From an archaeon (GTDB lineage: Archaea > Asgardarchaeota > Thorarchaeia > Thorarchaeales > Thorarchaeaceae): a stretch of DNA of 64,000 nt. The first letter of the stretch is position 1, and each line of letters opens with the position of its first letter. The translations under genes and the position numbers were made by a program. The notes beneath the pieces were generated by a model, which saw nothing but the letters and a program-made list of their open reading frames with translations, was not told the origin of the DNA and made no database searches. Where the stretch lies: NCBI GenBank assembly GCA_024276825.1, contig JAJRWI010000069.1, positions 32,001-96,000 of the forward strand, written 5' to 3'. Below are positions 6,901 to 23,780 of this stretch, one piece after another.

Positions 6901-9900
6901 TCATAAAGTCCCCAATATTATTGAATGTGTAAGATATAACGCATATGCCATCCGCATCAGTGATTAGTTCTGATGAGTAGATGACAGTTTCGTCAGAATC
7001 TCTTATTGAAAAAGACACTTCCGAATTGCTCAGCGGAACCCCTTGCCAATTTATTAGAGAGATTATGATACCCCGTGTGGAAGTCTGTATTAGCGGCGAA
7101 GTTGGATTAATGTTTATCTCAGTAATGCCAAGTACAGTTTTGGATATTTGGTTAGTAGAGCTCAACAGAAAGTCTTGAGAGTCGAAAGTTGAAATGACAG
7201 ATAAAGTGCCGGGATGCGAGAGTGTGAAGCTGATAATGATAATGCCATGTTCATTTGTTATGTCTGTATTATCGAAAAAGATCTCGCCATCCAAGAATAA
7301 CTGAGTTGATATACTCATATTAAAAACTGGATATCCCAGAGAGTCAACCAGTTGCACTTGAAGTGTTGCATTATCAACTGCTCTTAGAGGGCCATCCCAT
7401 TCGATAAGGAGTGCTGATGACTCACAGACCTCCACCAAATTTATTGAGCTGGCAGATTCATACCACAATTGACGAGAAGATGATGTATTGATTATTATTG
7501 AACCACGAACATCCGGAGTCCAAGAAACATTCAGATGACCATCGTCATCTGTTAGGCCCGAAATACTTAGTCCTTGGGTTGTGACATTGACAAGAATGTT
7601 CGTGACAGGAGTGCTGAGATGATTTGTGGCAAGAACATCAATCCATGATTGAATGCCAACCTGCAGATTCGTGCCCACTTCGACTGTGAGCATCAGTGGG
7701 ATATAGGTGTCTGTGTTTTTAGCGATAGAGGCAGACCCGCGAGATATGCTTCCTTCATAGATTGACTCTATCTTATACGAGCCAGCTGTGTCAGGAGTCC
7801 AGTTGTAGGCTATTGTTCCGTCCTGAGAAGTGGTCAATGTGATGTTGATTATTTGCGTTGAGGGCAAGTATGTGATTATCAAGATGAGTGTTTCTGATGA
7901 AAGAGAATAGTTCATCGAGTCCAACAGCCGTGCACCTATTAGGTAGGACTGATCTACGAGGGTATCAGATGGAATGCCGGTTAGTTGAAGATTGCTTGAA
8001 CTCCATGAAACTATATTATCATTTGAATCACAGAATTGAAGATGCAGAGTTCCAGCAAAGTTGGCATTGATTGAGTAGACACCATTCTCGCCAAGATAGA
8101 TTGTGAACTCAATTTGTCCATTGATGTCTGTAATTAAGTAGTCATCCATGATGATAGCTCCCGTCGGAGATCTAACATTGATGAGAATCTGTTCATCAGA
8201 TAGATTCTCCCCAGACAGGGTGGAGAGGGTGAGATTTACTGTGATGTTCGAATATTGGTTCTGTGATTCAACATTCTGCCAAGTTATCCGAGTTGGCTCT
8301 GAAACAATTATATCCCCACTGAATTCTGAGGACTCAATCGTTCCATTTCGGGAGAACAGAAGCCTGTAGGTGAAGGTCCCACGCGTATCAGGGGTCCAAT
8401 TGAAAGTACTGACACCCTCTATTGACTTGTCGCTTGCAGAGTACACAAGAGTAGATCCATAATAGACCTCAAAATTCACAGTCTGAGAGGCGATAAACGA
8501 GCCATTTTCTTGAAAGTGCAATGACCAGTTCACTATTGCTGATGTGGATAGTTCCGAATAAACCACGCTGTCCGCAACGAAATATGTGGGCCTAGGGGCA
8601 TTAAGAACAATAGGCTCGCTGATAAGTAGAGATTCACACCACGCCCTATCAAGTATGACATTTAAATCGTAATTTCCCTCTGTAAGGTCACTGGTGGGGA
8701 TCTCAATGTTGAATGATGAAACCTGATCGTAATAGTACCATTCCTTATAGAATGATTGATTTCCGACTCTAACAGTCAAATTCGTTGGACCTGCTGGTTT
8801 GCCTGTATCAAGAGCCCATGTGACTGTTGAGTTAATCATATCGCCAATGAGAGCAGATGAGTTGAACACTTCCAGTGATCCATTCAATGAACCTGTAGTG
8901 TTTACTTCGGTCCTTGCGAATGCCCGACAATCACCGTAGTCATTCAACATTATAGAGATGTTAGAGGAACCCAAGACATCTTGAGTTTGTGGGACTTGGA
9001 TGATTAGAGTGTCACTGTTAGCTACATTATCAAACTTGAATATTTCATTGAATGCAGATACTTGAACAGTGTGCGAAACTTTGGTTGAATTAATTGAGAT
9101 ATCAATTGACAACCCTTGTCCAATATGTGAATAACCGACTGATGTGATTGCAATGTTCTGTCCTGTAGGTTTCATCAATCTTAACCTGAGCCCAAGAATT
9201 GAAACCATTTCCAATACATCAGCTGTAAAGACTGGCTGCCAGAAATCTGTCGAGTTGAACCAGCCATCGATAAAACTATTCTGCAGGAGATCTTCTATCA
9301 GCGAGATGTTGAATATATCTAGGCTAATTGTGAACGAGGAGTTTAGTAGGGCTATTGTTGCCACATCACGGGATAGGGCCCACAGATCATCATATTGTAC
9401 CCTATTCGCTATCACTGATGCAATCTCGTTAGCCATTGCAGTGGTAATCAGATCAAGACGTAATGCAGTTCTTGTAGATAGATAGTCTATGGCAGACTGC
9501 TTTTTGGCGAATGGAAGTATAGTCCATGATTGAGAAGACCATCTTCCACTCTGATACTCGTTCATGACTGCAGATTCAAGTTGTGTTCTATAGGATATGG
9601 AATCAAGACCATCTAGAAGGTTCAATGCTTCAATAGCAGCAACAGAGTACTGCATTGATGGTGTCCAGATGAACGAGTCCATGGGTCTGAAATGTCCCGA
9701 TGATGCTTGACATTGTTGAATCTGTGATATAGCTGAAGTTCGCATTGCATTATCGAGAATAAATCCACAGGCGTTGGTCAGTTCAACGCCGAACAATTGA
9801 GACCACACACTTAGATCAAAATACTGAGTTGATGAGATATACGAGGCATATTCTTGAGGAACATGTGTTGTGATATTGACCAGATCAGGATATTCTGACC

Positions 9901-11812
9901 AGCGACTGAACATCTCAAGATAATCGGAGATTGATGACATATTTGTTATTTGAAATGAATGGGCATATCTTGCAGTCTTTGCAATCCAGTAACTCCACAT
10001 GAGAGACGGAATTGGTTCCATGTTCTCAAATCCTACTTCAGACCTGCAGGCTTCGACAAAGTCAATCAGGCCAGCAGTGCTAGCCCCAATTTCAACAAGG
10101 CATGTGGCCACAATATCAGTATGAATTAATTTGCCAACTTGGTCCCACTTATCTCGACCAAAACCTCCTGAGGGTAATTGAACCGAAGTCAGCCATGAAA
10201 TCCCATTTGTTCTGTTCTCTTCGGCCAATGTACCCAAGACCGACATTGTTGTGAGAGCATTTGCAGTTCCTCTTACAATTTCAATAGACGGAGGAATTTT
10301 GTCAGTGTAAGAGCCATCTCCATTGGAGGTCTGATCAAGTATCCACTCTGTCAGTTTATATGGATCATTGTGAGATTTTCCCAGAATTTGCAATGATAGA
10401 ACATACTGAGCTGCATAGGAATTACTTGGCGACAGAGATGATGGATTGTATGATACACCTCCCCAGAAGTCGGGATTGGGAGTATCACCCCCATCTATTA
10501 CACAGTCCCTTAACCAAGACTCGAGTGAAACTGTGTCAATTGCGCTCAGACTGCCAGAATAATTCAATGATTCAAGGACATAATAAGTGACTGTAATCGA
10601 GTCTTCAAAACCACCTTCTGGCATTTGTTTGCTTGCGAGCGTATCTGCAAGTAATGAAATATTGAAACGTTTTGATCCTATGATTGACGCAATCCAAAGG
10701 CCATTTGCTATCGATGTGTTTGTCACTTTGCCATCGATCAAAGAAGTGTAGAAGTTAGCAGTGACTCCATCATCAAGGTAGAGTCGATCAAGTGCATTTT
10801 CAATCATTCCACTATTATTATCCAGCCATGAAATCCAGTCTTGACCATTAAGGACTTCATATGCAATATGCACAGCATGATATATGGCCTCAATTCTCGG
10901 GGTGTGAAAATAGGAGAAACCTCCTTCTACAACATCTGTGTGTGAGGCTTGTGCAGATCTGACAGTTATGGATGTAGAGGACTCTTTGAGTGTAGGGACA
11001 TAGGCCAATAGATTGACAAGTAAATCAATGCCAGACTCGGTCATTCTTGTCGGGCTTTCTGCAGAGAGTAGAAACATGTCGAGCGGCCACGAGTCATATC
11101 TCAGGACAGGAAGCCTTTCAGGAGCGTCTGCGCTAGTGAGATTCACTAGTCGTGAGTGTTCGGTTTGTGCGATGTCAAGTGGCAAAGCAACTTCATTTTC
11201 TGTGGTAATCATATCACCACTTGTGATTGTATTTGGATAGTAGAAAAAGACTGCCTTCTCATAAGCCGGTGTGGTGAATAGGGTGTTTGATGAGAAGGCA
11301 GTGTGGGAGGGAGAACCTCGATTTTTGAGCCTGTGCAATATCCATGCAGAGCGGCCCAAGAGTATCAGGGGAGCATCACATTGAAGAAGAGAGGAGAGGA
11401 GAGAGTTGGAAACCAAGGATCCATTGTCAGCTCCCATACTCGCATCAAGTATTATAGCTGGAGACCCAGAGATTACTGAGGCTGTGATCTCATCTGCAGA
11501 AATAATCTTGGTCACTATTCCTCGTGCTTCGAGAACCTTTGCAATTTCAAAGCCATGAGACGTAATTGATGTGTTCAATGCTTGTATGATTATATAGGGT
11601 GTAGCATCAATAATAATTCCAGGTGTTGCACTAGTCATTGTGTTCTCGACTTGTTTGGGCCTTGAGTCATCATATGAGAATAATGAGCGTAATTGATCGC
11701 TTGCAGTCGGTTGGGATGACAATAATATCAAGAGTGCGAAGGTAAGTGCAACAATCCATTTACTATTCATTAATTCACATATCCCCCATTGTTTTGATTG
11801 AATAATTCTCAA
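3986..11812 (-). CDS. Giant secreted, C-terminally anchored surface protein with prenyltransferase/squalene-cyclase-like repeats and an Ig-like repeat stalk
   Basis: Signal peptide (likely start MNSKWIVAL at 11770). QW-like repeats SKQMPEGGF, DQTSNGDGSY, SVQLPSGGF, QQCQASSGHF. Many TxxxG/WTPxxxGxY beta-sandwich repeats after ~aa 880. C-terminal TM followed by RKR. Confidence 0.8.
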   Translation of the reverse strand: MRIIQSKQWGICELMNSKWIVALTFALLILLSSQPTASDQLRSLFSYDDSRPKQVENTMTSATPGIIIDATPYIIIQALNTSITSHGFEIAKVLEARGIVTKIISADEITASVISGSPAIILDASMGADNGSLVSNSLLSSLLQCDAPLILLGRSAWILHRLKNRGSPSHTAFSSNTLFTTPAYEKAVFFYYPNTITSGDMITTENEVALPLDIAQTEHSRLVNLTSADAPERLPVLRYDSWPLDMFLLSAESPTRMTESGIDLLVNLLAYVPTLKESSTSITVRSAQASHTDVVEGGFSYFHTPRIEAIYHAVHIAYEVLNGQDWISWLDNNSGMIENALDRLYLDDGVTANFYTSLIDGKVTNTSIANGLWIASIIGSKRFNISLLADTLASKQMPEGGFEDSITVTYYVLESLNYSGSLSAIDTVSLESWLRDCVIDGGDTPNPDFWGGVSYNPSSLSPSNSYAAQYVLSLQILGKSHNDPYKLTEWILDQTSNGDGSYTDKIPPSIEIVRGTANALTTMSVLGTLAEENRTNGISWLTSVQLPSGGFGRDKWDQVGKLIHTDIVATCLVEIGASTAGLIDFVEACRSEVGFENMEPIPSLMWSYWIAKTARYAHSFQITNMSSISDYLEMFSRWSEYPDLVNITTHVPQEYASYISSTQYFDLSVWSQLFGVELTNACGFILDNAMRTSAISQIQQCQASSGHFRPMDSFIWTPSMQYSVAAIEALNLLDGLDSISYRTQLESAVMNEYQSGRWSSQSWTILPFAKKQSAIDYLSTRTALRLDLITTAMANEIASVIANRVQYDDLWALSRDVATIALLNSSFTISLDIFNISLIEDLLQNSFIDGWFNSTDFWQPVFTADVLEMVSILGLRLRLMKPTGQNIAITSVGYSHIGQGLSIDISINSTKVSHTVQVSAFNEIFKFDNVANSDTLIIQVPQTQDVLGSSNISIMLNDYGDCRAFARTEVNTTGSLNGSLEVFNSSALIGDMINSTVTWALDTGKPAGPTNLTVRVGNQSFYKEWYYYDQVSSFNIEIPTSDLTEGNYDLNVILDRAWCESLLISEPIVLNAPRPTYFVADSVVYSELSTSAIVNWSLHFQENGSFIASQTVNFEVYYGSTLVYSASDKSIEGVSTFNWTPDTRGTFTYRLLFSRNGTIESSEFSGDIIVSEPTRITWQNVESQNQYSNITVNLTLSTLSGENLSDEQILINVRSPTGAIIMDDYLITDINGQIEFTIYLGENGVYSINANFAGTLHLQFCDSNDNIVSWSSSNLQLTGIPSDTLVDQSYLIGARLLDSMNYSLSSETLILIITYLPSTQIINITLTTSQDGTIAYNWTPDTAGSYKIESIYEGSISRGSASIAKNTDTYIPLMLTVEVGTNLQVGIQSWIDVLATNHLSTPVTNILVNVTTQGLSISGLTDDDGHLNVSWTPDVRGSIIINTSSSRQLWYESASSINLVEVCESSALLIEWDGPLRAVDNATLQVQLVDSLGYPVFNMSISTQLFLDGEIFFDNTDITNEHGIIIISFTLSHPGTLSVISTFDSQDFLLSSTNQISKTVLGITEININPTSPLIQTSTRGIIISLINWQGVPLSNSEVSFSIRDSDETVIYSSELITDADGICVISYTFNNIGDFMITASYPGADLNAPAEIVQIQQVYVTPNFKLSVAPSVILGETLSIDTGILDKLGQYISGRNLTMSIYMNDTLVFQSVFLSNDGTTQTHWTPAARGLARIMIYHSPSFLYLENSTNVYISVLEMVSANLALSADNIDLFTSVEFVYQMAAESDVSNIQVDFALLGIDLLPVWSSTTITDENGTARMTYFANHTTGMLTLRVEPHEEYFTIGGSQETQLTVMTNCSLSVQFMPSPPSLGDDVIILISAHDDLGGIISGVSVTVWLSDPYGVLIKLGTWSNSINLVLENGAANLTFTPSVSGLYRVELQSQETTTVHSAYHESSHTVYCPINLNITLSNYDILVGQTVTIVVRMTDYWDSIMAGFDLTVEIIGPGTKTIGPVTLTTNSSGYVTWVVSINDQGFWTIIASFDGAGVYLSSNEADNIDARYGTLIHVQAQLDTVIASETVVSLSVLLTDSNDAPLEGFSLGYSIYHSEFGPVNGGLLMQSSNMPEKLNLTFPYMGNYSIIFIFNGTAHYHPSNTAIELFVFGTTTVSFESPKSFDRALNASVRIICLNEMGETIEPSQLNIEILLENGTHPIDVSSRLMSDNNWTGLSVFKLPVGQYHLSISVANTPTRIGTHGEFTFNITTVSKIMIQQASADGILGHEQYISLIITDSLDIPLDSVDVSISLYDPLGNEILGSPLSSVTKYETNDGVIEVSWTPTLTGNYSLVVSYEGNEFISSCDFQITTLSRYQTDMEVDVDWVFTFGNPVRATITLSSPTAKVSNVEIEVKAFLEGMCIIDTSIPTSFRGIATIQLHDLPAGLILLNFSFNGDSNFAPAYQTRMIKVQPIVDVFVAEVISPYLGSNCTVCLNISILGPDMSWTGLLSYKITRPDNRTQLGQIVVGSTGSISLTFHAEVIGVYSINLTISGIPAIATYHDTFNIVIESAPIPLMVDAATTPVFTGGLVLPLIGLFVRKRLNRIIESLPSDWDE

Positions 11813-12249: not shown

Positions 12250-13920
12250 ATGACACGCGCTATTCCAGTTTCAATTGGGTGGTTAAGACAACAGACAGGT
12301 TATGACAGAATAAGGCAGACTTATGACTCATTATTGATAGAGAATCTTTTTAAATTGCATTACGGAAATAGAAATTTTAGTCGTGATGTTTTTGAGAGAA
12401 GCAACAATCTCAAGCCCATTGATCCCAAAGTACGGACAAAGAGATTGCTGGAGAGGAAGATTGGAGGACTCGATGCAAAGAACAACTTGACATTGTATGA
12501 GAAATTAAAAGGCGATAGTTTATTCGAGCAGATTCAGTCAGTCTTGCCCAAAATCGGAGAGGGCAGACGATCATTATTGCTTCTAGAAAAGCGTGATGAA
12601 CTCACGTATATCTTAGCCCGTGTGGTTGCAGGATTACTACCAAAGGGGCTTTCATGGACACTAAATTCAGAAGGGATAGATGACCTCTGCGCAGGGAGCT
12701 TTTTCCTTCTGCAGCTTGCCAAGTATTTTGATGCAAGTGTTCGCTGGCTAGAGATAATTAGGCATCCGGAGCTCTACCCAAGAAGCACAACCACAGATAT
12801 TCGAAATATCAGGCCTGACTGTGCGGTTGCCTCGCGATGGGACTTCTTCTTCTCAAAGATTCGACTGTCATTGAATACTATGAGAAAGCCCGAAGTCATG
12901 GAGTTTCACAGAAGGAGAGGAGAATACATCAGGCCCAAACAGGTGACCCATCAAGAGATAATGAACATCTACAATAGGAAGTTTTCAAAACGAACTGCGA
13001 CCACCTTAAGTGCAATATTGGACTTTTCGAGCACTGAAAAGTTTCTCCCAAATATGCCGGGTATCGGATTGCAATATCGCTATGCAATTACCGAGAGGAG
13101 AAAAATTGCTTCATTTTTCAGGGGAGGTCTCATTGAACATTATAAACTCATGCAGACATATGATAATCAGTTCAAACATGTCTTTATCTATCTTGAACCA
13201 ATCGGCACACAAACTGCGCCATTTCTAGCAGATGATGAGATCATCCAATTTGTCACTAATGACGAATCATTCAGTATAAGGCTAGACTTGTATGACAAAG
13301 CAAATAAAGATTGGAGCATAGAACCCTGGAATCAAAAAATCCCAGGGAATCCTCAGAAGAGCGATCTGTGGTTGTATCATGAGATTAGGAGTAGAGTTGA
13401 GAAGGAGAGAAGTTGGAATAAAAGGGAAATGGAGGTCATGTTCACTCTTCTCGGCCATAATGGTTCGTTTCGATCACGAGTTTCAATCATCAATCTGCTA
13501 GGATATAGCACCACAACATTTCACAGGTCTTTGAATAGCATTCTTGATGAGAAGCATGTCAGTCTGATGCATCATCCCACATTGGAATTCATAGGATTGA
13601 CTGAGGGAGTGCTCGTAATCATCCCGGATGCTCATAGCAAGTTGATCAGGAAATGTATCAAATGGTTTAGAAATTCCAATGTGTATTGTCACATACGCAG
13701 CGATTCGGAGAGAAGGAGGTTGGTTGCACATATCAGAACCCCAACCGCAAGGGCATGGATTGTGGCAAAGATCATTCGAGACATGCTATTAAAGGAAGGA
13801 TTGAGATTCGAGGAGGGTGAGTTCATATCAGCTATAATATCGGGTATGAGATATCACTACATGACACTTCCTGCCAGACTATTCGACAAGAGTGGCAAGT
13901 GTTGGAGAGATATCAAGTGA
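12250..13920 (+). CDS. Hypothetical protein, probable tandem Lrp/AsnC-like wHTH regulator
   Basis: 556-aa ORF. C-terminal 'WNKREMEVMFTL...LGYSTTTFHRSLNSILDE..HPTLEFIGL' fits wHTH plus Lrp linker; the earlier 'LPNMPGIGL' repeats the linker. Confidence 0.5.
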   Translation: MTRAIPVSIGWLRQQTGYDRIRQTYDSLLIENLFKLHYGNRNFSRDVFERSNNLKPIDPKVRTKRLLERKIGGLDAKNNLTLYEKLKGDSLFEQIQSVLPKIGEGRRSLLLLEKRDELTYILARVVAGLLPKGLSWTLNSEGIDDLCAGSFFLLQLAKYFDASVRWLEIIRHPELYPRSTTTDIRNIRPDCAVASRWDFFFSKIRLSLNTMRKPEVMEFHRRRGEYIRPKQVTHQEIMNIYNRKFSKRTATTLSAILDFSSTEKFLPNMPGIGLQYRYAITERRKIASFFRGGLIEHYKLMQTYDNQFKHVFIYLEPIGTQTAPFLADDEIIQFVTNDESFSIRLDLYDKANKDWSIEPWNQKIPGNPQKSDLWLYHEIRSRVEKERSWNKREMEVMFTLLGHNGSFRSRVSIINLLGYSTTTFHRSLNSILDEKHVSLMHHPTLEFIGLTEGVLVIIPDAHSKLIRKCIKWFRNSNVYCHIRSDSERRRLVAHIRTPTARAWIVAKIIRDMLLKEGLRFEEGEFISAIISGMRYHYMTLPARLFDKSGKCWRDIK

Positions 13921-13925
13921 TCGAC

Positions 13926-14138
13926 TTAAACAGGCACTTCATCGGCCACTCTCTTAGTAATGGCTCGAATCACTTGTGAGAAGAGTGGATTTCTGCGTTT
14001 GCATTCTTCATGAACCATTCGCAAGAACTTTCTGCAGATCTCCAATAGCTCTCCGTCTGACTTTAGTAGAAAGCCTCTAACAGATATACATACATTACAG
14101 AGTTCATCATCTCTTAGTTTTGACCAATCGATTGGCAT
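13926..14138 (-). CDS. Small hypothetical protein (70 aa, MPIDWSKL...), last gene of the operon
   Basis: ATG at 14138 overlaps the FEN1 stop (TAATG coupling); Cys-containing helical sequence. Confidence 0.6.
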   Translation of the reverse strand: MPIDWSKLRDDELCNVCISVRGFLLKSDGELLEICRKFLRMVHEECKRRNPLFSQVIRAITKRVADEVPV

Positions 14139-15127
14139 TAAAACCAAACCTCCAGAGTTGTTTGATAAGTTCCGAATCTCTTCCATGTTCTGATTATCTC
14201 ACTAGTCAGGATTTCAGCCCTGTCCTCATTCATTACTACATTCAGAATCTTGGTTAGTCGTGAACTCAATGGCGAGCGAAGTTGCAGGTCGCTGGTGTTG
14301 ATAAATAACCGATTGACTTCATCAAAAGTTTCACGCGCACGAATAAACTCTTCGCGCTCACTCTGCAGAAAGCCAAGCGATCTTAAAACATCTTCAAGAA
14401 ACCCGAATCGTTTCAGCAGGATTGCGCCCTTGCGTGGACCTATTCCTTTGACACCCGGCGAGAAATCACAACCCGATAGAATTGCCAGGTCTCTTAATTG
14501 CTCAATGTCTAGGCCTATGGATTTCAACACTGAGTCCAATGTAGTATATTCAACCTCGTCTTTCGAATAACGAATTGATTTGGAAACATGAGGACTACCA
14601 AAGAGAAGTGCATCTACATCATTAGACAAACATGTTCCTGCAAAGCCATCCTTGCATAGTAGGGCTGCAGCCATCTCAGCCTCAGTTGGAGAAGTGATTG
14701 CTGGCACGCCAATTGCAGAACAAATATCCATGATATGGTATGCCGAGAAGTACCATCGCAGAGAAGGACTATCATGGAGACTCTGAACGAGAAAAATATC
14801 CCTTGGATCTTGAGTCCTAGAGAATTCCCTATACAGGTCATTTGCAGTTCGAATCAACTCAGGGTTGGGAGAACGCTTGAGATGTTCAGGGATTCCATCA
14901 AATATGAATACAGGCAGGATATTGCTGGCAAGAGCCTTCTTTATGAAGCCAAGGACAATTGAAACATGAATAGTCGAAATTCTATCTAGAGATTGGATGA
15001 TTCTGTTCTCGATTGAACGAATTCTCTTCATCAAATAGTTAGGGGCATCAATCGCAATCACTGCTGGGTGTATAGTATTGATCTTACCGACCTGCCAGGA
15101 GATGAAGTCCCAGTTCTTAACACCCAT
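14138..15127 (-). CDS. fen: FEN1/XPG-family structure-specific nuclease with C-terminal PIP box
   Basis: MGV...IAIDA, VFIFDG, EAEMAAA, SNDVDALLFG, H2TH LSGCDFSPGVKGIG; PCNA-binding QTTLEVWF. Confidence 0.9.
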   Translation of the reverse strand: MGVKNWDFISWQVGKINTIHPAVIAIDAPNYLMKRIRSIENRIIQSLDRISTIHVSIVLGFIKKALASNILPVFIFDGIPEHLKRSPNPELIRTANDLYREFSRTQDPRDIFLVQSLHDSPSLRWYFSAYHIMDICSAIGVPAITSPTEAEMAAALLCKDGFAGTCLSNDVDALLFGSPHVSKSIRYSKDEVEYTTLDSVLKSIGLDIEQLRDLAILSGCDFSPGVKGIGPRKGAILLKRFGFLEDVLRSLGFLQSEREEFIRARETFDEVNRLFINTSDLQLRSPLSSRLTKILNVVMNEDRAEILTSEIIRTWKRFGTYQTTLEVWF

Positions 15128-15832
15128 CTATACTACCTCCACCCCACTCTTTCTTATTCTTACAACAATTGCAGGGGGTATTCCATGAATAGGACTTTTT
15201 TCAGCAAGGATTCTATAGTAATCCCTTGTTCCCTCAAGAAGCCCCACAAGAAGGGACCAGTCGATATCGTGGGTCAGAACATTTCCACCTATGGGGATTA
15301 TCTTTCCAGAGTCCCAATTGCGTTTTGAGTGCCCCGTTAATAGAATGTGAATATCCATCGAATTGGCAAGTCCCCTCAAGCATTCAAGAGTGTTGAAGAG
15401 TTTGCGTTGCCTTTCTTTCGATCCTGGATTTCCTGATAGGTTCAGAAGATTTGTGAGGTTATCGATTATAAGAAGGAAGAGTAATTCGAATTCTCTTAAT
15501 GATTCTTTGAGCAGTTGGATATCCTCAAGATTTAGAATGTTGGTAAAATGAACCAATCTCATTACTTTCTCAGATTGAGAGGAGTTCTTGCACATGCTTC
15601 TTATTATCCTAGGGTTGTAATTCTTTCCTGAGTCAAGGAACACCACAGACTTTCCTGCCTTTGCAACTTGAACTGCAAGGTTGTGGGCCAACAATGTTAG
15701 AGGTGCTTTGTTAGGTCCGTGAATCAATGTGATCTGATGACTTTGTAGTTGGAATATGCTGTTAAGAACATGAGGCTTCAATGAGATGTTAAGATCATCA
15801 TCAGTTCTTAGTCTATCAAGTGGAATGGCCAT
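15128..15832 (-). CDS. RadA/Rad51 paralog (RecA fold) with degenerate Walker A
   Basis: ITLIHGPNKAPLT (no GKT), VVFLDSG, Walker B LLIIDNL, RQRKL, PIGGNVLTH. Confidence 0.8.
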   Translation of the reverse strand: MAIPLDRLRTDDDLNISLKPHVLNSIFQLQSHQITLIHGPNKAPLTLLAHNLAVQVAKAGKSVVFLDSGKNYNPRIIRSMCKNSSQSEKVMRLVHFTNILNLEDIQLLKESLREFELLFLLIIDNLTNLLNLSGNPGSKERQRKLFNTLECLRGLANSMDIHILLTGHSKRNWDSGKIIPIGGNVLTHDIDWSLLVGLLEGTRDYYRILAEKSPIHGIPPAIVVRIRKSGVEVV

Positions 15833-16787
15833 TCTCTCTCACCCCAGCAGGAATCATTCGAGTATCGCGGTTGATTAGTAATGAACTGATCACATTTGTT
15901 GGCAGCCTTGATACATTGTAGCCTGATACAAAGACATCGGGACATACTGCAATCAGTCCCCCAATTCGGGGAAACAATGTGACATAGTTTGCACCTTCAG
16001 TCAGAAGAACATCAATCAATTTCTGCTCCGGAATGATACAATATCGCCCATGTGCAAGTTCACCCTCATTCTCAATGAGTGGAAGAGCAAGAACAAGCTT
16101 GAGTAGGATTTGACTCCCAATCTCGTAAGGTATCTTGTTTCTTTGGAGCAGGTTATTGATTGTAGCATGCCAGTCCTCGAGATGTTTGGCTCTCAATACC
16201 AAGGCATCAAATTCATCAAGAATTGTCATTGAAACCGGAAGCATCGGACGGTCTCTCATAAGCTGAATAATCTTCATTTCATACTCTTTAGGGATTATGA
16301 ACAGGGCCAATGATGAAGTGCTAATTCTGAGCCAGCTAAAAGTATGCCCTTCCCAAACTGAGTAGAGTTTCATAACGAGAAAGCTGATAAGCGGATAAGA
16401 CCCAAATAACTGGCCCAATATCGAGATTGAACTCTGGGGGTCTTGAACTAATCGCGCTAGCAGGCCGACAAGTGCAACCGCTGCAATCATTGGGACTATT
16501 CCAAAAGGAAGTATGATCAAAGCACTTGCTATTGCCAAGAGAATGACACTTGCCCATGCGATGATGCTAATTAAATTAAACAATAGACCATCTTTATCAT
16601 CAAATTTCCCTGAAATTCGTAACAAGGCTACTGAACAGACTATCAAAACAATTAGAGGAAGATAATCGCCCAGTCTAGCAGCAATCACAATTGAGGACAC
16701 ATATCTGATTAGATGCCCACCCATGAGAATAGCAAAAGCTGCTGCAAATGATAGCCACATCAGACGAAAGCAGTACTTACTGAACAA
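15816..16787 (-). CDS. Membrane protein (~4-5 N-terminal TM helices plus soluble domain)
   Basis: Hydrophobic stretches over aa ~5-145; overlaps both neighbours in the operon. Confidence 0.7.
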   Translation of the reverse strand: MFSKYCFRLMWLSFAAAFAILMGGHLIRYVSSIVIAARLGDYLPLIVLIVCSVALLRISGKFDDKDGLLFNLISIIAWASVILLAIASALIILPFGIVPMIAAVALVGLLARLVQDPQSSISILGQLFGSYPLISFLVMKLYSVWEGHTFSWLRISTSSLALFIIPKEYEMKIIQLMRDRPMLPVSMTILDEFDALVLRAKHLEDWHATINNLLQRNKIPYEIGSQILLKLVLALPLIENEGELAHGRYCIIPEQKLIDVLLTEGANYVTLFPRIGGLIAVCPDVFVSGYNVSRLPTNVISSLLINRDTRMIPAGVRENGHST

Positions 16788-17413
16788 TTCAGATCGCCCT
16801 CCTGTAAGGCACCATCAGGCCTGATAATGACAGAACCATTCTCTTGTATGAGAGTCTCTGCTATCTTATTTCCATTTACCAAGATGCTAGAGATACCAGT
16901 AGGATCTCTTCTAATTTCAAGGTCATTATCACAGAATCTCCTGATGATATCGTAGAGGAGAGGGACATTGTGATCATTGAGAAAACGCATCTCATTGATT
17001 GCAAGAATCTGAAGGTTGGAATTCATAACCAGTGAGGAAAGAGTTGGCATTACCTCTTCTAACATTTCTCTGCCCCATAATGTGGGGTCTTTTCGTCCCA
17101 AGTCCACAGTTCGTGATATCGAGTCTATGACAACTAGCCTTGTGTTGCTGTTGATCAATTTGGGTAGTCGTTGTATCTGCTCTAATGCCTGCCCATGAGC
17201 CATGACGACTGAAACATTTTCTCTCTTGCCATTATTCAGTGATATGTTGTTTCTAAGGGGGTTTAGGAATGACCATTTACCATCCGTGTTCATCCATAGT
17301 ACATGATGATTCACAGTTAGTGGGGCTGCAATGGCAATTGCGAAAAGTGTCTTTCCAGAGCCTGCATCACCCCATACATGAGTCAGGCCTTTCAAATTCA
17401 GCATCATCCGCAA
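16760..17413 (-). CDS. RadB-like short RadA/Rad51 paralog
   Basis: Walker A GDAGSGKT, WMNTD, Walker B LVVIDS, AINE; lacks the N-terminal HhH domain. Confidence 0.82.
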   Translation of the reverse strand: MRMMLNLKGLTHVWGDAGSGKTLFAIAIAAPLTVNHHVLWMNTDGKWSFLNPLRNNISLNNGKRENVSVVMAHGQALEQIQRLPKLINSNTRLVVIDSISRTVDLGRKDPTLWGREMLEEVMPTLSSLVMNSNLQILAINEMRFLNDHNVPLLYDIIRRFCDNDLEIRRDPTGISSILVNGNKIAETLIQENGSVIIRPDGALQEGDLNCSVSTAFV

Positions 17414-17416
17414 ATA

Positions 17417-19045
17417 TCACACCCCCTCCCCAATAGTTGCTTTCGATGTTGGCTTGCTGGATGGGTCGCTTTCTCTGTCATCTTCAACTGCACCTGCGTT
17501 TCTAATTTCGGCTAATACATCTTCAATACTGTCAAGTTCAGAGCCACCTTCAGATGCTGGTTGATCATCGGACATAGTTCCACCATTCTCTGTATCACTT
17601 GCCACAATGACTGGCAAATCGCCCTCCATCCAAGACCTAGTCTGGGCACTAATAGCTTGGATTGATTTCTCCTCGATGATGTCATCAGGGGTCTCCAGCT
17701 CTTCCTCAATTGCTTGCAGAGTATCTCGCAATGACCTGTCATTAAGAACATCATATACTCTATCACGAGCCTCAGGATCGATTAATCCTGCATTGAATAA
17801 TGAACAACTAATCTGGCCTATTATTGCAATGAGCCTTTTTTCAGTCAGGGGCGAAGTGAAATGAGAAGTGATATCGCTATAGATCAATGCAAGTTCTGCT
17901 TCTTCATTGCCATCAAGAGTATATAAAGTTCGGAAGAGACCCAAGAACTTGTCCAAGCCAGTATCGCCTGATGTACTGTGACTATCAATCAGGTTTGGCG
18001 CCGCAAACACACATTCATCTAGAATTGATGACAATAACAAAACAGTCCTCTCAATCTGTCCCGAGGATATTGACTCAGCTGATGAGATTAACAGCGGGGA
18101 TATTATGAAACTCATATCTCCTATGGCCTTCAGAATGGTCTTGTTGTTCGCAATTGCCTGATCAATGCGATAAGAATCAGATAGAGATGCAATGCATGTC
18201 AGTTCATCATTAAAGTTGTTCCAGAACGATGTGATGCGCTTACGGGAGTCCATTAGAAGCCAAGAGCCAAATGCACTGCTTGCAATTGCTGAAACAAGTG
18301 GAATGACGAATAAACTTGATCGATAGATAAATGCTGTAACCAGTGAGAGCAATCCAATTATGCCGAAGATGATTCCAAGAGCTCCATACCATCCCCTAGT
18401 TATTCCTGCTTTCAAATAGTCCCACTTTTCAGGAATAACATTTTCATAAAGATCAGATAGAAACGCTCTATTATCGCTGTTAATCGCCGGCACAAAGGTT
18501 TCTCTGTTGACAACTCTTCGAGAGTCAGTCAACCAAGAGAGATCAAAGGATGGTCTTACATCATCTATCACAACATAGACAGTCTTGGTCGGGTAAATGG
18601 CCGACCGCTTCATACTTTTGTTAGACACAAAGAGGGGGATTTTGACATTACCCAAGGGTATTCGGATTTTGAACTCATCGAGATTTATGTCCAAGTCCAC
18701 ATCAGATAATGTTTCATGAAGATTCCTGCTGATTACATCCAGCACCCTTGATTTCAGAGCAAGCACTGATCTACCGAATTGAGCTCTTTGAAGATCAAGC
18801 ACATATGTGATGTCAACATGCACTCCGCGTGTAGAAGGCATTCGGTTAAGCCTTACAGCAAGAATCAGCCCATTGTCATAAACGTTTACTCGATAGCCCA
18901 ATCGTTTTAATGATTCTTCAAGGTCATAGAGTTCGGTGTTTATGACCTCATTCTCATTTTCTAGGGCTTGGTCTTCATCAGCCCTTTCAGTTTTCTCTTT
19001 AATTTTCATTTTCAGAAGCCTCCAATTTTCCGAATCTTCTATCAA
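17417..19045 (-). CDS. Hypothetical membrane protein (2 central TM helices, acidic C-terminal tail)
   Basis: TM segments WYGALGIIFGIIGLLSLVTAFIY and LFVIPLVSAIASSAFGSWLL; 542-aa ORF within the operon. Confidence 0.7.
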   Translation of the reverse strand: MIEDSENWRLLKMKIKEKTERADEDQALENENEVINTELYDLEESLKRLGYRVNVYDNGLILAVRLNRMPSTRGVHVDITYVLDLQRAQFGRSVLALKSRVLDVISRNLHETLSDVDLDINLDEFKIRIPLGNVKIPLFVSNKSMKRSAIYPTKTVYVVIDDVRPSFDLSWLTDSRRVVNRETFVPAINSDNRAFLSDLYENVIPEKWDYLKAGITRGWYGALGIIFGIIGLLSLVTAFIYRSSLFVIPLVSAIASSAFGSWLLMDSRKRITSFWNNFNDELTCIASLSDSYRIDQAIANNKTILKAIGDMSFIISPLLISSAESISSGQIERTVLLLSSILDECVFAAPNLIDSHSTSGDTGLDKFLGLFRTLYTLDGNEEAELALIYSDITSHFTSPLTEKRLIAIIGQISCSLFNAGLIDPEARDRVYDVLNDRSLRDTLQAIEEELETPDDIIEEKSIQAISAQTRSWMEGDLPVIVASDTENGGTMSDDQPASEGGSELDSIEDVLAEIRNAGAVEDDRESDPSSKPTSKATIGEGV

Positions 19046-21209
19046 TCAACAGTTTCAATTGACGAGCATTCTCAGACACCTGTACTAGTCCACCATGTTG
19101 GGCTATGACAGATATGCAATACAGCAGCCACTTGGCATTCTCAAGAATGAATATCAGATCCCCATAGGAGATCGAGTACATCTTTGAGATGTCATGCAGG
19201 GGTATTGAAGTGGTTGCAACCTGCCCAATGAATTGTTCAAAATCAATCTCGAGCTTTTTGCCAGTTTCAAGTCGAGTCAAATGATGAACAAGCCAGAATA
19301 ATTGAGAGTTATTCTCGATGATTGGCAATATAACAATCATCTCACGAAAAGTATTCGTGCGTAAATAGAGTTTATTTACAAGACGTCCAAGATGAGTTGG
19401 TCTCAGTTTACCATCAATCGAACCCTCGACTAGACCCAACCTTATCAGACTTCTAGCTGGGCTTGATTCACTTAGCGCTAGGGGGATGATATAATTAGCA
19501 TTGTCGGGATGCTGTTGAACTGCGGACACACCAAGTGAAACCAGATGCGGGCAGAGAATGCCATTCTTCATTAACGGTTGTCCGCATGAGCAGGTTGGTC
19601 CTTCGATTAGATTATTGGAGGAGGTACGGATTGAGAATCTGCAAGTCACACTGCCTCCCGGAATGCCCGAAACCAGTCCCCCAATAACGGTGGGACTGAT
19701 CTCGCGAATCTCCACTCGTCCTAGAACACCCTCTTTTGCCGCTTTTAGAGTCGATGATATACTATGGCGTTCTATGGCCTTAATTGCAGTGATTTCACCA
19801 AGTTCGAGTATCCGAGATGGAGAGTTGATATCACGAACACTGGTAAATGCAAGAAATGAGTTTCCAAGAAAGCCATGTTCTATTGAGTCAAGAGTCGATT
19901 CACCAACAAAGTCAAGAGCGACGAGCAATTGGTCGGTGAGGTCATTTGCAATCTGACTGTGAATCTGTTCATATTTTGGAATCAGAATTATATTTCCTGC
20001 ATCATCCTGAACATTGTCAAAATATGACTCAACGATTCTTTGAGCTTCGCCCCTGCTGCCAGCAAGAATAATGCCAAAGCCCTTTAGATCCTTTCCAGGC
20101 CGTCCTGCTCTTCCCAGCATTTGATGAACAAGATTTGCAGGCAACAATTGAGTGCTGACACCAGGCTGGTTCACATTAGTAATCACAACTGTTCTTGCGG
20201 GCAGGTTCATTCCAGCAGCAAGAGTTGTAGTTGCGCTGATGACCTTAATGAGACCTCTTTCAAACAGGTCTTCAATAAATAAGCGAGTTTTGGAATTCAT
20301 TCCCGCATGATGGAATGCAACACCATCATGGATCAGTGGAGTCAAATCAGGAGCAATCTGAGAACCCCAATTAGACACACCACCGACTTCACTATCGAGC
20401 TCTATTTTTTCCCTACGGGTCAGTTGTCTGCCAACTTCATTAGCAATACGTTTCGCTGTTGCTTCGGCCTCTCGTCTGGTTCTGTTGAAGATTATCAATT
20501 GGCCATTGCTCTGAACGGTAGTCATTATGATTTCCCGAGCCAGACGGGTTCGGTCTGAAGTCGAAATGACCCTATTAACAAGTGGTACTGGTCGTTCTGT
20601 ATGAGTAATGAGCTTGCAGTCAAGCCATTCAGCAAGCTCATCTGGAGCAGCAATTGTTGCTGATAGCGCAATAATCTGAACATCCGATATTATACGTTTC
20701 AACCGAATAATCAGGCTTTCAAGACGTGATCCTCTCTTGCCTTGAGAGAGAGTCTGTATCTCATCAATCACAACTGCACCAATCTCAGATAGCCAAGAGG
20801 TTCTGTGGCGAAATAACGAGTCGGCCCTCTCATATGTCATCACTATGATGTCATTATCTGCCAGTTCATCACCATTCATGTAATAATCGCCCGTTGAGAG
20901 AGCAATCTTGATCTGCTCGCTGGCATACTTTGCCCATAGCTCATTAGCAATCTGTGTAGCCAATGCTCGTAATGGGACAAGGTAAATGCCTTTGGAACCG
21001 TCAATTACTGCACGCAACAGGGCCATTTCACCAATGAGGGTCTTGCCTGAACCAGTGGGAGAGCAAATCATTAGGCTCTCGCCATCAAGCACTCCTTCCT
21101 CAATCGCTCGCACCTGCACTCCTCTGGGAGTGACCCCTATTGTACTTAGTATTCTTTTGATCTCTTGAGCAGTGTCAATTACGGCCACCAACTCACACCC
21201 CTCCCTCAA
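18999..21209 (-). CDS. Hel308/HelQ (Ski2-like) SF2 helicase with inserted SWIM zinc finger
   Basis: SPTGSGKT, VPLRALA, DEIQ, LSAT, FHHAG, TLAAGMNLPAR, QMLGRAGR; CSCx10CPH SWIM motif. Confidence 0.9.
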   Translation of the reverse strand: MREGCELVAVIDTAQEIKRILSTIGVTPRGVQVRAIEEGVLDGESLMICSPTGSGKTLIGEMALLRAVIDGSKGIYLVPLRALATQIANELWAKYASEQIKIALSTGDYYMNGDELADNDIIVMTYERADSLFRHRTSWLSEIGAVVIDEIQTLSQGKRGSRLESLIIRLKRIISDVQIIALSATIAAPDELAEWLDCKLITHTERPVPLVNRVISTSDRTRLAREIIMTTVQSNGQLIIFNRTRREAEATAKRIANEVGRQLTRREKIELDSEVGGVSNWGSQIAPDLTPLIHDGVAFHHAGMNSKTRLFIEDLFERGLIKVISATTTLAAGMNLPARTVVITNVNQPGVSTQLLPANLVHQMLGRAGRPGKDLKGFGIILAGSRGEAQRIVESYFDNVQDDAGNIILIPKYEQIHSQIANDLTDQLLVALDFVGESTLDSIEHGFLGNSFLAFTSVRDINSPSRILELGEITAIKAIERHSISSTLKAAKEGVLGRVEIREISPTVIGGLVSGIPGGSVTCRFSIRTSSNNLIEGPTCSCGQPLMKNGILCPHLVSLGVSAVQQHPDNANYIIPLALSESSPARSLIRLGLVEGSIDGKLRPTHLGRLVNKLYLRTNTFREMIVILPIIENNSQLFWLVHHLTRLETGKKLEIDFEQFIGQVATTSIPLHDISKMYSISYGDLIFILENAKWLLYCISVIAQHGGLVQVSENARQLKLLIDRRFGKLEASENEN

Positions 21210-23493
21210 CTGTTAGCGCCTGACGAAGTGCCATGGTACCTTTCAGAGTAATGCGATAGTTCGAATAGTTCACTCCATTGAGAAACTCGTGTCCACGCAA
21301 GATCATGTTTGCCTGTTCCAGTTGAATAAGCAGGCTTTCAATATCATCAATCTCTACGCCACTAGTTTGAATGAACTTCTTGAGCGCCTCAACTGTGAGG
21401 GGCTCGTACCGTTCGAGAAGCTGTAGAACTTGAGCTGCAAGATTAGATCTCTCACCAGTGACAAATGCAAGTACACCTGATTCTGCCGCCATTGATGGTT
21501 GTTCTGAAGTTCCAATCATACTCAAGCGTCTGGACGTGATGTCTGACTCAGAGGGAGTGTGCAACTTTAATGGTGGACCAAGCTTTAAAGGAACACATGT
21601 ATCAGGGTTCGAATCTACGAGAAGTGCATGCTCCTTTTTCATGGTGCGCAGATAAGAGCTCTCACGTGATGATATTCGTGCCTTACTATGAATCGAGTCG
21701 ACCACCGACAGGCCTAACATATCAGACATGACCTTGATGTCTTGAGAACTCTTCAGCCTGAAGGCAAGGCAAGAACTGAACAGATCTAATAGATGTTGAA
21801 GTTCCGATGGATTTCTTATGCTTAACATTAGAGGGCCACGCCTGAGCATGTCAGTGATCAATCTATGAGTCCATAAACCCCGACTACGGTCATGCAGTTT
21901 CAGCAGAAGATTTAGAGGTTCGTCTAGAATTATTACGACATTCTTGTCCTTTGTGAGGGCTGATATCTTTATCATGAAAAGGTCCCATGCAAATGTGTCA
22001 AGTTCATTGGAGTTCAAGTCTATTAGCATGACAGTAAGTGGGAACTCGGTCAACTTAGCCATCTTTGCAGTCTGGATACCATAAAAGGCACGAGCCCCGA
22101 TTCCGCGATGGAGAACACGGACTGCCTCAAACCCATCAAGTGAGGCCCTGGAGGGAGAGTCATCCGCTGTTATCGTGGGTTGGTCTTCATTGTGGAGAAG
22201 AGTGATGTCTGCTACAGTTCCTCCGTTCAATGCCACAGCTCTGCTTAGGGCATCCTCAAAGTGTGATGCAGAACTGAGTGCTGAAGAGCATATCACTTCA
22301 AGTGCGGTTTTCAATCTGGGCACAAACTCGTGCCTTGGAATGTTCTCAGCATCAACGGGATTCAAGACAAAGTCTTTTCCCAGGGTCAGACCAAGTGAAT
22401 TGTTGGTCAATGATAATAGAGACATTGCTCTTCTGTTATTTGTCAAAATTATCACATGCTTTCCGGACCTCAATATCTGAGGAATCAAAAGACTGTAGGC
22501 ATGAAATCTATCAGACCACTCACCACCAGTAATTAGAACTCCATTCAAGAGGTCATCATCTGTGAAGCCTACTATAGGCCCAGTCTGCAATGTTTCGGGA
22601 TTGATTATCACACCCAATTGATAGTCGCACTGCTTGGCACGAACGGGCGAGATGAATTCGCCAGGAATATTGGCCCCCACTTCCGGAGCGAGTTCTGAAA
22701 CCAATTGAATGGTCCATTCTGATAACTCACGACCGAGAGCATAGAATCGTGGTGTACCATCTAATATCCTGCATTCATTCACCCATTTGGCAAGCCGCTT
22801 GCCGCTCATTCTCTTCAGCCCGTGCTCAGGAATGGAGCCTCGAACTGCAGAGTCAAAGTATCGAGTTTCGTTCTCATTCAATGTTTGACCAAGTATTGTA
22901 AGACCTGTCTTCCACAAACCACCCTTCGAAATAATGATGTCTGATGGTGCCCTATGAAAACGCCTACTAAAAAATGGCAGTGGAAAACGCTTCAGTTTAT
23001 TTCTGTTGACAATTACTGCATTGTTCTCAGGTACCAAAGAAACAGTGAATGAGAAGCCAGAACTTGTATCAAGTGCTCTAATAAGCTTGGACAGGTTTCC
23101 TGCTAGGCGGGGAGGTTGCTTAAGTTCTAGGCCAAGTAAAAGAGTCTGAGGACCTGCACCCTCGAACTCTACCTCTCTTTTTCTAGGACCAAGGAATATC
23201 TCAGACACTTTCAAGTTGCATAGGCCAGCCTCTTGAAGCTTGGACTCGTCAGACCTCATTCGAAGACTAAATAGAAACATAGTGATTGCAGTTGCAAATA
23301 ATAGGACAACAACATGATTTAATGTTATAAAGATGAAACTATAGATGGATGCTACAAGCAATAGATCGAAGAGTGGGTTGCTTCTGATTCGTCTATCGCA
23401 CAACCGAGCCTTTCCAGAGGGTCTTAGTTGCATCCTGCCCTCATAGGTTATCTCGTGAGTGTCTATCAATGACGAGTTCCATCTAGATATCAT
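21193..23493 (-). CDS. Membrane-anchored HerA/FtsK/VirB4-like P-loop protein with degenerate Walker A and C-terminal wHTH
   Basis: Two N-terminal TMs. GVLITGGEWSDR at the Walker A position, FVLNP motif, Walker B IILDEP, HerA-like 'CLAFRLKSSQDIKVMSDMLG'. C-terminal 'YRITLKG' wHTH. Confidence 0.65.
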   Translation of the reverse strand: MISRWNSSLIDTHEITYEGRMQLRPSGKARLCDRRIRSNPLFDLLLVASIYSFIFITLNHVVVLLFATAITMFLFSLRMRSDESKLQEAGLCNLKVSEIFLGPRKREVEFEGAGPQTLLLGLELKQPPRLAGNLSKLIRALDTSSGFSFTVSLVPENNAVIVNRNKLKRFPLPFFSRRFHRAPSDIIISKGGLWKTGLTILGQTLNENETRYFDSAVRGSIPEHGLKRMSGKRLAKWVNECRILDGTPRFYALGRELSEWTIQLVSELAPEVGANIPGEFISPVRAKQCDYQLGVIINPETLQTGPIVGFTDDDLLNGVLITGGEWSDRFHAYSLLIPQILRSGKHVIILTNNRRAMSLLSLTNNSLGLTLGKDFVLNPVDAENIPRHEFVPRLKTALEVICSSALSSASHFEDALSRAVALNGGTVADITLLHNEDQPTITADDSPSRASLDGFEAVRVLHRGIGARAFYGIQTAKMAKLTEFPLTVMLIDLNSNELDTFAWDLFMIKISALTKDKNVVIILDEPLNLLLKLHDRSRGLWTHRLITDMLRRGPLMLSIRNPSELQHLLDLFSSCLAFRLKSSQDIKVMSDMLGLSVVDSIHSKARISSRESSYLRTMKKEHALLVDSNPDTCVPLKLGPPLKLHTPSESDITSRRLSMIGTSEQPSMAAESGVLAFVTGERSNLAAQVLQLLERYEPLTVEALKKFIQTSGVEIDDIESLLIQLEQANMILRGHEFLNGVNYSNYRITLKGTMALRQALTVEGGV

Positions 23494-23780
23494 GGGCCCC
23501 TCCTAATCATCGATTGCGAGAGGATCTCAAGAATACGGCTGAAATGCCTTACATGATTCTCATCACCATCCCAGATGAACAGCTTGCGATGGATAATTGA
23601 GATTGAAGGCATATTATTCTTTGACGATTCTCCATGAGCGACAATTTTGGGTAGTTTAACCAGTACTCTCCAGCTATAACCATGACCTGATTGCAGTACT
23701 GACATCAGTTGATCAATGTCGAGAAATGGCGAGATATCAAGTGCTTCACTAGCATTTGACTTCAATCTCAACACCTCCAT
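23490..23780 (-). CDS. Small hypothetical protein
   Basis: 96-aa ORF; its stop overlaps the next ATG (ATGA). Confidence 0.55.
   Translation of the reverse strand: MEVLRLKSNASEALDISPFLDIDQLMSVLQSGHGYSWRVLVKLPKIVAHGESSKNNMPSISIIHRKLFIWDGDENHVRHFSRILEILSQSMIRRGP

Follow-up and report, generated by a model that had tools for sequence, protein, structure and literature searches.

Short RadB-like and RadA-type proteins, one with an intact and one with a degenerate P-loop, encoded around a membrane protein gene in Thorarchaeaceae

Known accessory Rad51-type proteins and the R217-R234 locus

Accessory RadA paralogues, RadB and aRadC among them, are known in archaea, and the RAD51 paralogue heteromers of eukaryotes (Rad55-Rad57, BCDX2, CX3, RFS-1/RIP-1) are built of non-identical Rad51-fold subunits that depend unequally on nucleotide binding. 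Here we describe two short Rad51/RadA/RadB-type genes in a 64,000-nucleotide (nt) stretch of an Asgard archaeal genome of the family Thorarchaeaceae (GenBank assembly GCA_024276825.1, contig JAJRWI010000069.1, positions 32,001 to 96,000), which we call the window and to which the coordinates below refer unless another locus is named. The genes encode proteins of 217 and 234 amino acids (aa), R217 and R234, and enclose the gene for an orphan membrane protein, TM323. R217 retains an intact Walker A motif, R234 carries a degenerate but conserved one, and the two are probably helper proteins for DNA recombination. Eukaryotic RAD51 paralogue complexes typically show an asymmetry of live and dead sites; here it occurs in Asgard archaea, tied to a Hel308-like helicase. 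We found no description in the full-text literature of a conserved gene pair in which one nucleotide site is live and the other dead.

Both proteins share with euryarchaeal RadB (TIGR02237; PDB 2cvf) the core-only RecA fold of ~220 aa, and the N-terminal HhH domain (HHH_5) is detected in neither of them, unlike in RadA2, a second full-length RadA encoded upstream. In structural comparison, their predicted models likewise cover the ATPase cores only. Among NCBIfam models, that of RadB fits both families best and is matched by 27/27 members of each family alignment (best member E-values of 2.9e-18 for R234 and 1.6e-11 for R217), and the alignment of R217 with 2cvf spans the whole of R217. The likeness to RadB is nevertheless partial. 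The window copies score 49.4 bits (R234) and 36.5 bits (R217) against a cut-off of 172.4, and the genome holds a separate and better RadB-like gene at 147 bits. Moreover, R234 is nearer to RadA than to RadB and is without a P-loop, and the two genes have a fixed place in an operon, on either side of a membrane protein gene. In Haloferax, RadB is described as a mediator of recombination (PMC5480776).

The eukaryotic RAD51 paralogues offer a second comparison. RAD51D, RAD51C, XRCC3 and XRCC2 rank at the top of the structural matches of the pair, and the Hel308-like helicase in the operon finds a parallel in the binding of the animal Hel308, HELQ, to the paralogue complex BCDX2, as stated in a 2026 review (PMC13623763). 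The same review describes clear or direct data for an interaction of archaeal Hel308 with RadA as lacking. The R234 sequence, however, is nearer to RadA/Rad51/DMC1 chains (about 62 bits, ~5e-16 in a profile comparison) than to RAD51D (33 bits, 2.5e-7) or RadB (7e-8), and TM323 is without a eukaryotic counterpart. Since R234 is restricted to a single Asgard family, its resemblance to RAD51 paralogues is most simply parallel rather than a matter of ancestry.

Two further systems share single traits with the pair. R234 keeps Walker B and L1/L2-type elements that the Shu proteins are not known to have. The Shu complex Psy3-Csm2 (PDB 3vu9) resembles R234 in having a Rad51-like fold devoid of nucleotide-binding motifs, but the structural match reaches a Z of only 12.2 over 163 residues. 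The aRadC/KaiC-like proteins, represented by Sso2452 (PDB 2w0m), are likewise short archaeal members of the RecA superfamily that have no N-terminal domain; their structural scores are lower (Z of 16.1 with R217 and 19.0 with R234), and KaiC models match few or no members of the two families. In Asgard archaea, full-length RadA has been analyzed, and the divergent and RadB sequences drawn into those searches were identified by phylogeny (PMC12722695).

Nucleotide sites, family and phylogeny of R217 and R234

Translation of the window coordinates reproduced the reading frames and all of the motifs reported in the first-pass annotation of this DNA. R217 has a Walker A motif (GDAGSGKT, 17348-17371), a Walker B motif (RLVVIDSI, 17117-17140) and a TDGK element (17276-17287) whose Asp aligns with the catalytic Glu of RadB, and it has no N-terminal domain. 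With these elements, R217 is predicted to be able to bind ATP. The Walker A position of R234 reads GPNKAPLT (15695-15718) and a Gly is aligned with the catalytic Glu of RadA, whereas Walker B (LFLLIIDNL, 15455-15481) is retained along with RQRKL (15398-15412) and GGNVLTH (15269-15289). GK[ST] is found in 22/22 distinct R217 sequences and is missing from 41/41 distinct R234 sequences. R234 is therefore at best a non-catalytic member of the Rad51/RadA family, whose functional Walker A, GxxxxGK[ST], is present in R217 and absent from R234. The degenerate P-loop is itself conserved, with the consensus G-x-E-R-x-P-L-T/S; nine columns of R234 are invariant, including the GG and His188, and the His of GGNxxxH is invariant in the family alignment. 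Judged from sequence, R234 is a maintained pseudo-ATPase that has neither the Walker A Gly-Lys nor the catalytic Glu, and its dead P-loop is old as well as maintained.

The two proteins also differ at their N-termini. R234 begins with ~30 linker-like residues, and its Leu5 is invariant in 27 sequences. When the models are laid on Rad51-family cores, residue 1 of R234 aligns with residue 143 of yeast Rad51, 84 of DMC1 and 64 of RAD51D, and residue 1 of R217 aligns with residues 161, 101 and 82, respectively, so that by this measure the R234 N-terminus is longer by ~17-18 residues. The region of Rad51 that matches these extra residues carries a polymerisation motif; R234 could accordingly dock on another core, and R217 could only receive.

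That R234 has lost the Walker A Gly-Lys and the catalytic Glu might also be read as the decay of a duplicate on its way to becoming a pseudogene, and relaxed selection on the degenerate copy was a possibility that the first-pass annotation had raised. This reading is hardly credible and is refuted by conservation, as the R234 open reading frame (ORF) is intact in 53 genomes and split in one, and both the degenerate motif and the nine invariant columns are kept. Ratios of nonsynonymous to synonymous substitution (dN/dS) were estimated by the Nei-Gojobori method from pairs with 0.1 < dS < 1.5, which share sequences and are thus non-independent. The median is 0.125 for R234 (22 pairs), 0.177 for R217 (7 pairs), 0.193 for TM323 (14 pairs) and 0.095 for the adjacent FEN1-like gene (15 pairs), and R234 ranges from 0.09 to 0.22 in the seven pairs in which all four genes are unsaturated. 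Purifying selection on R234 is at least as strong as on its partner, and R234 is thus not in decay. The mean protein distance is 1.12 for R217 and 1.12 for R234.

R217 and R234 are of the Rad51/RadA/RadB type and not of the KaiC/aRadC type, as evidenced by profiles, predicted folds and the tree. R234 passes the Pfam Rad51 model PF08423 with 37.5 bits against a cut-off of 22, and 8/8 R234 relatives among those listed carry this annotation in precomputed form; the Pfam scan of R217 gave no PF08423 match. Over its full length, the R217 profile matches RadB 2cvf best (1.2e-6), and the R217 and R234 profiles align with each other at 94.9% probability and 16% identity. That the pair might instead be KaiC/aRadC-type signaling or regulatory ATPases, a grouping that the first-pass annotation had named as fatal to its reading, draws on weak R217 matches to KaiC that are confined to the P-loop and on KaiC models that match 3/27 R217 members. 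KaiC models match 0/27 R234 members, however, and among the nearest outside relatives of R217 the RadB model is matched by 61/61 of those scanned from the 108 next-ranked listed matches. The pair does not group with KaiC, and we regard this disfavored reading as very improbable.

The predicted folds agree with this assignment. The AlphaFold (AF2) models have pLDDT values of 88.7 for R234 and 87.2 for R217, and they were searched as predicted models in an all-against-representatives comparison. The R234 model is closest to RAD51D (Z 27.0), followed by RAD51C-XRCC3, DMC1 and Rad51 (Z 25.2-25.6), with a root-mean-square deviation (rmsd) of 2.3-2.9 over 213-226 residues for the top Rad51-family chains; RadB (Z 22.4), KaiC (20.3), FlaH (20.2) and Sso2452 (19.0) come lower. 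For the R217 model, XRCC2, DMC1, XRCC3, RAD51C, RAD51D and Rad51 are closest (Z 19.2-20.1; rmsd 2.4-3.0 over 180-198 residues), and RadB (Z 17.5), KaiC (16.9), FlaH (16.7) and Sso2452 (16.1) again lie below. Rad51-family chains are thus ahead of KaiC and Sso2452 by ~3-8 Z (19-20 against 16-17 for R217, 25-27 against 19-20 for R234), although all of them share the superfamily fold. Foldseek searches with both models are in agreement.

A maximum-likelihood tree was built from 54 rows and 228 columns. Its rows comprise nine orthologues per family with the window copies, 19 of the 61 RadB-like neighbors, the paralogues of the same genome, four DPANN RadA proteins and a KaiC-like outgroup; one RadA of 740 aa was dropped after a first quick tree. 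Each of the two families forms a clade with 100/100 support. R234 groups with RadA, RadA2 and the short RadA paralogues of another Asgard family (96/99), and R217 with three RadB-like proteins (93/88) and with a 226-aa protein of a sister family (85/89), while the KaiC-like protein of the same genome is a distant outgroup. On this tree the two proteins are assigned to different, long-diverged lineages, R234 nearer to RadA and R217 nearer to RadB-like proteins. Its rows contain no eukaryotic paralogues, and no specific kinship of the pair with eukaryotic RAD51 paralogues emerged.

Other short paralogues were seen alongside these families. The same genome encodes a further, third RadA paralogue that is fairly short (303 aa; contig C8, L004:1282-2193, plus strand) and has a degenerate P-loop, GDGGLHRD; this protein scores 56 bits with Pfam Rad51 and ~80 bits with RadA models. 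The separate RadB-like gene of this genome (236 aa) has an intact GEAASGKT and lies ~0.8 kb from the canonical XPD/Rad3 gene, with a divergent ORF of 257 aa between them (contig C36, L119:1951-5410). In another Asgard family (L111:13-5276 and L109), two short RadA paralogues (265 aa and 230 aa), both with intact P-loops, are encoded ~4 kb apart; in the tree, the 265-aa type comes closest to R234 among proteins outside the R234 family. The 265-aa and 230-aa pair was considered as an equivalent operon and rejected, since FBPase, Trm1 and FtsJ genes lie between the two.

The operon and its conservation

As Table 1 shows, R217, TM323 and R234 are part of a run of genes on the minus strand. Seven of these form a tight operon in the order p766, Hel308-like, TM542, R217, TM323, R234, FEN1-like, with spacings of -47 to +3 nt from p766 to the FEN1-like gene; the TM323 ORF overlaps both of its neighbors, by 28 and 17 nt. 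From this arrangement, R217 and R234 are predicted to be co-translated from the seven-gene operon. A search of sequencing runs listed none for it.

Table 1. Genes of the R217-R234 locus and their positions in the window
Gene	Position	Strand	Description
FEN1-like flap endonuclease paralogue	14138-15127	minus	starts right after R234, 0-nt gap
R234	15128-15832	minus	234-aa ORF; short RadA/Rad51-type protein, degenerate P-loop
TM323	15816-16787	minus	323-aa ORF; orphan membrane protein between R217 and R234
R217	16760-17413	minus	217-aa ORF; short RadB-like RecA-fold protein, intact Walker A
TM542	17417-19045	minus	orphan; central hydrophobic segments, acidic C-terminus; upstream of R217, 3-nt gap
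Hel308-like superfamily 2 (SF2) helicase paralogue	18999-21209	minus	362 bits, core only
p766	21193-23493	minus	first gene of the tight operon; two N-terminal hydrophobic segments
p196	23749-24339	minus	small membrane protein; 255 nt from p766
XPD/Rad3-like helicase paralogue	24340-26301	minus	182 bits against a cut-off of 247
RadA2	27377-28420	minus	second full-length RadA, 347 aa; HhH domain, intact GKARAGKT; divergent

The first-pass annotation had proposed that the pair serves the operon's own RadA. The gene in question proved to be that of the divergent RadA2, which lies 442 nt upstream of the p205/XPD-like block and 10 kb upstream of the R217-TM323-R234 trio, and which stands outside the tight operon because two intergenic gaps (255 and 442 nt) intervene. 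The canonical RadA is encoded on the same contig, just beyond the window. Scans of the window for tRNA genes and Rfam families gave no matches, and a sigma-70 promoter and terminator scan, which is not applicable to archaea, stayed at the level of shuffled sequence. PADLOC returned only generic helicase-family matches (HamB for the Hel308-like and DinG for the XPD-like protein) and none for the other eight proteins; the cluster is therefore not a recognized defense system.

The distribution of the pair was surveyed in 87 genomes of the class, in which R234 orthologues match at E <= 4e-25 and all other proteins at E >= 1e-7, and R217 orthologues match at E <= 4.3e-16, the next match being the genome's own RadB-like gene at 2.3e-11. 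R234 is present in 54 of the 87 genomes (53 with an intact ORF and one with the gene split over two contigs) and R217 in 52 (one split). Both occur in 50, R234 alone in four and R217 alone in two; at least three of these six discordant genomes have the locus at a contig end. In a phylum-wide sample of 301 genomes, scores of 253-359 bits with the R234 profile were obtained for 52 genomes of its own family in addition to the split one, which amounts to 53 of the 77 sampled genomes of that family, and none of the 224 genomes of other families exceeds 85 bits. A search of 1.84 billion representative proteins with the R217 profile yields 40 at E <= 1e-30, whose full-length matches reach at least 210 bits; no other protein exceeds 81 bits.

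Synteny was examined in 20 fetched loci from 15 genera. The order TM542, R217, TM323, R234, FEN1-like is identical in 20/20 loci, which bears out the earlier description of a membrane gene between the two paralogues; BLAST overlooked TM323 in three loci, and the family hidden Markov model (HMM) recovers all 20 (E <= 2.4e-14). The Hel308-like gene precedes TM542 in 18/20 loci, the remaining two ending earlier, and p766 is present in 16/17 loci that reach that far. The single sister-family genome has the same order of a FEN1-like gene, a RecA-like gene of 223 aa, a membrane protein gene of 404 aa and a RecA-like gene of 226 aa. Individual loci vary. In one relative (L032; single-contig, 77% complete), the cluster is without p766, p196 and XPD-like genes, the Hel308-like ORF is 975 aa long, and neither RadA2 nor the giant protein described below was found in the 77% complete genome. 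The FEN1-like gene of L022 is split into two ORFs, as are both the Hel308-like and the XPD-like genes of L028; these could be frameshifts or assembly errors.

The enzymes encoded with the pair have canonical counterparts in the same genome. The FEN1-like protein scores 119 bits against a fen_arch cut-off of 352, and the canonical copy, on another contig, scores 444 bits. The Hel308-like match is short of the cut-off of 887, whereas canonical Hel308 reaches 857 bits over its full length, also on another contig, and canonical XPD/Rad3, beside the RadB-like gene, scores 307 bits. The FEN1-like protein retains the acidic positions aligned with canonical FEN1. In 5/5 other genomes, a canonical FEN1 is encoded elsewhere and a FEN1-like protein of 102-123 bits beside R234. 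By these profile scores, all recognizable enzymes of the tight operon are divergent second copies of housekeeping repair genes, as is the XPD-like helicase just upstream. Together with the orphan membrane proteins, they point to a specialized pathway.

Three to four of the proteins in the cluster are membrane proteins by hydrophobicity. On the Kyte-Doolittle scale, several hydrophobic segments fall within the N-terminal ~140 residues of TM323, followed by a soluble C-terminal part of ~170 residues with a conserved R-x-R-P-x-L-P-V stretch; the protein has no family match in Pfam or NCBIfam and no usable match in an Atlas search. Pfam and NCBIfam return nothing for the window copies of p766, TM542, p196 and TM323 except a sub-threshold match of TM542 (E 0.017), and none of their 16 orthologous proteins exceeds the Pfam thresholds, two matches being at chance level (E 0.02-0.04). 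For p766, a language model gave a lead to ATPases of the HerA/DUF87/TrwB/TraG type, with weak HerA matches (E 0.1-0.5). A Walker-B-like VIILDE is seen in p766 and a canonical Walker A in 0/16 orthologues, and p766 may be a second pseudo-ATPase of the same operon.

A giant protein of 2608 aa is encoded nearby (3986-11812, minus strand), with a hydrophobic segment at its N-terminus and an anchor-like segment at its C-terminus. It is homologous to a 2599-aa protein encoded inside the sister-family cluster (23% identity over 2589 aa, E 7e-106), and a homologous giant protein adjoins the cluster in 4/5 other genomes tested.

Candidate roles for the pair

The asymmetry of a live and a dead P-loop, together with the operon link to a Hel308-like helicase, fits an accessory role like that of Rad51 paralogues. 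We tentatively favor, at slightly less than an even chance, the view that R217 and R234 are an asymmetric heteromeric mediator of RadA-type recombination that acts with the helicase and the nuclease of the operon. In such a heteromer only R217 would bind nucleotide. R234 would be the nucleotide-free subunit, keeping the RadA elements that contact DNA and the neighboring protomer (the L1/L2 scaffolds and the His of GGNxxxH). The heteromer could bind or cap filaments of RadA or RadA2, or load them on single-stranded DNA, and its partners in a specialized recombination or fork-processing pathway at the membrane would be the Hel308-like helicase and the FEN1-like nuclease. Association with the membrane, or tethering to it, through TM323 is pure conjecture from gene position.

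Several observations weigh against such a mediator. In a mirror-tree comparison of 12 taxa, whose distances are near saturation, the correlation between the distance matrices of the two proteins is r 0.56, and this falls to 0.11 after controlling for the FEN1-like and Hel308-like proteins, below the value of either protein with p766 or TM542. A pair-specific signal did not emerge from this comparison, and the mediator proposal of the first-pass annotation is borne out in part. A search with the R234 alignment of proteins 441-2000 aa long gave no fused or longer form at E <= 1e-10, which is weak evidence. In the sister family both RecA-like P-loops are intact, the protein at the R234 position having GGPGTGKT, so the arrangement can exist without a dead subunit. 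RadA2 lies beside the cluster in only 3/5 other genomes. Finally, R217 and R234 are not sisters in the tree and are therefore not a simple duplicated dimer. Forcing them to be monophyletic costs 33.9 log-likelihood units, with p 0.0465 in an approximately unbiased (AU) test; the group was named after the tree had been seen and the p value is borderline, which leaves some room for an ancient tandem duplication.

The different origins of the two proteins in the tree and the lack of pair-specific co-variation are what would be expected if R217 and R234 did not pair at all. R217 would then be a RadB-like, homo-oligomeric ATP- and DNA-binding protein, and R234 a nucleotide-free adaptor for the FEN1-like or Hel308-like protein and not for RadA. 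RadB is reported to modulate the Hjc resolvase, and R234 directly abuts the FEN1-like gene in the window, an adjacency kept in 20/20 loci. We nevertheless consider this unlikely, given that the two genes co-occur strictly and in a fixed order around one membrane protein gene in their own and in the sister family, and that R234 retains the His of GGNxxxH and a linker-like tail, which are inter-protomer elements of the RadA type.

The membrane proteins of the cluster suggest another role for the pair, as accessory ATPase-like subunits in the assembly or motor regulation of a membrane apparatus for DNA translocation or exchange, acting elsewhere than on RadA filaments. The giant surface protein, TM542, TM323, p196 and a HerA/FtsK-like p766 would be its parts. 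The RecA-fold protein ArlH/FlaH plays an assembly- and motor-regulating role of this kind in the archaellum, and FlaH is among the structural matches of both R217 and R234. The number of membrane proteins, the HerA-type lead for p766 and the linkage of the giant protein in 4/5 genomes, and inside the cluster in the sister family, are consistent with an apparatus. We regard it as improbable, however, since the profiles of the pair are specific to RadA/RadB and not to FlaH/KaiC, the p766 orthologues are devoid of a canonical Walker A, and no known secretion or uptake family was matched in Pfam, NCBIfam or PADLOC.

A bolder proposal, which we hold to be distinctly improbable as a whole, joins the mediator to such an apparatus. 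Thorarchaeaceae would then possess a complete second, membrane-anchored recombination machine for the uptake or exchange of DNA between cells and its recombination. The giant surface protein, TM542, TM323, p196 and the Walker-A-less HerA/FtsK-like protein would belong to it, together with private RadA, XPD, Hel308 and FEN1 paralogues and an independently evolved live/dead R217-R234 heterodimer docked on TM323. If this were true, the second machine would be a prokaryotic counterpart of the partnership between HELQ and RAD51 paralogues. The proteins of the operon are in any case few and expressible, and would allow one to ask whether a partnership of helicase and paralogues exists outside eukaryotes.

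Two further genes of the window were noted. An orphan of 556 aa without a family match, p556 (12250-13920, plus strand), is encoded divergently beside the FEN1-like gene and holds the same place in 16/20 loci. The topoisomerase VI A subunit (31783-35957, minus strand) is unusually long, at 709 aa, with N-terminal additions of the HhH and DUF4332 type, and is encoded beside a B subunit of 682 aa.

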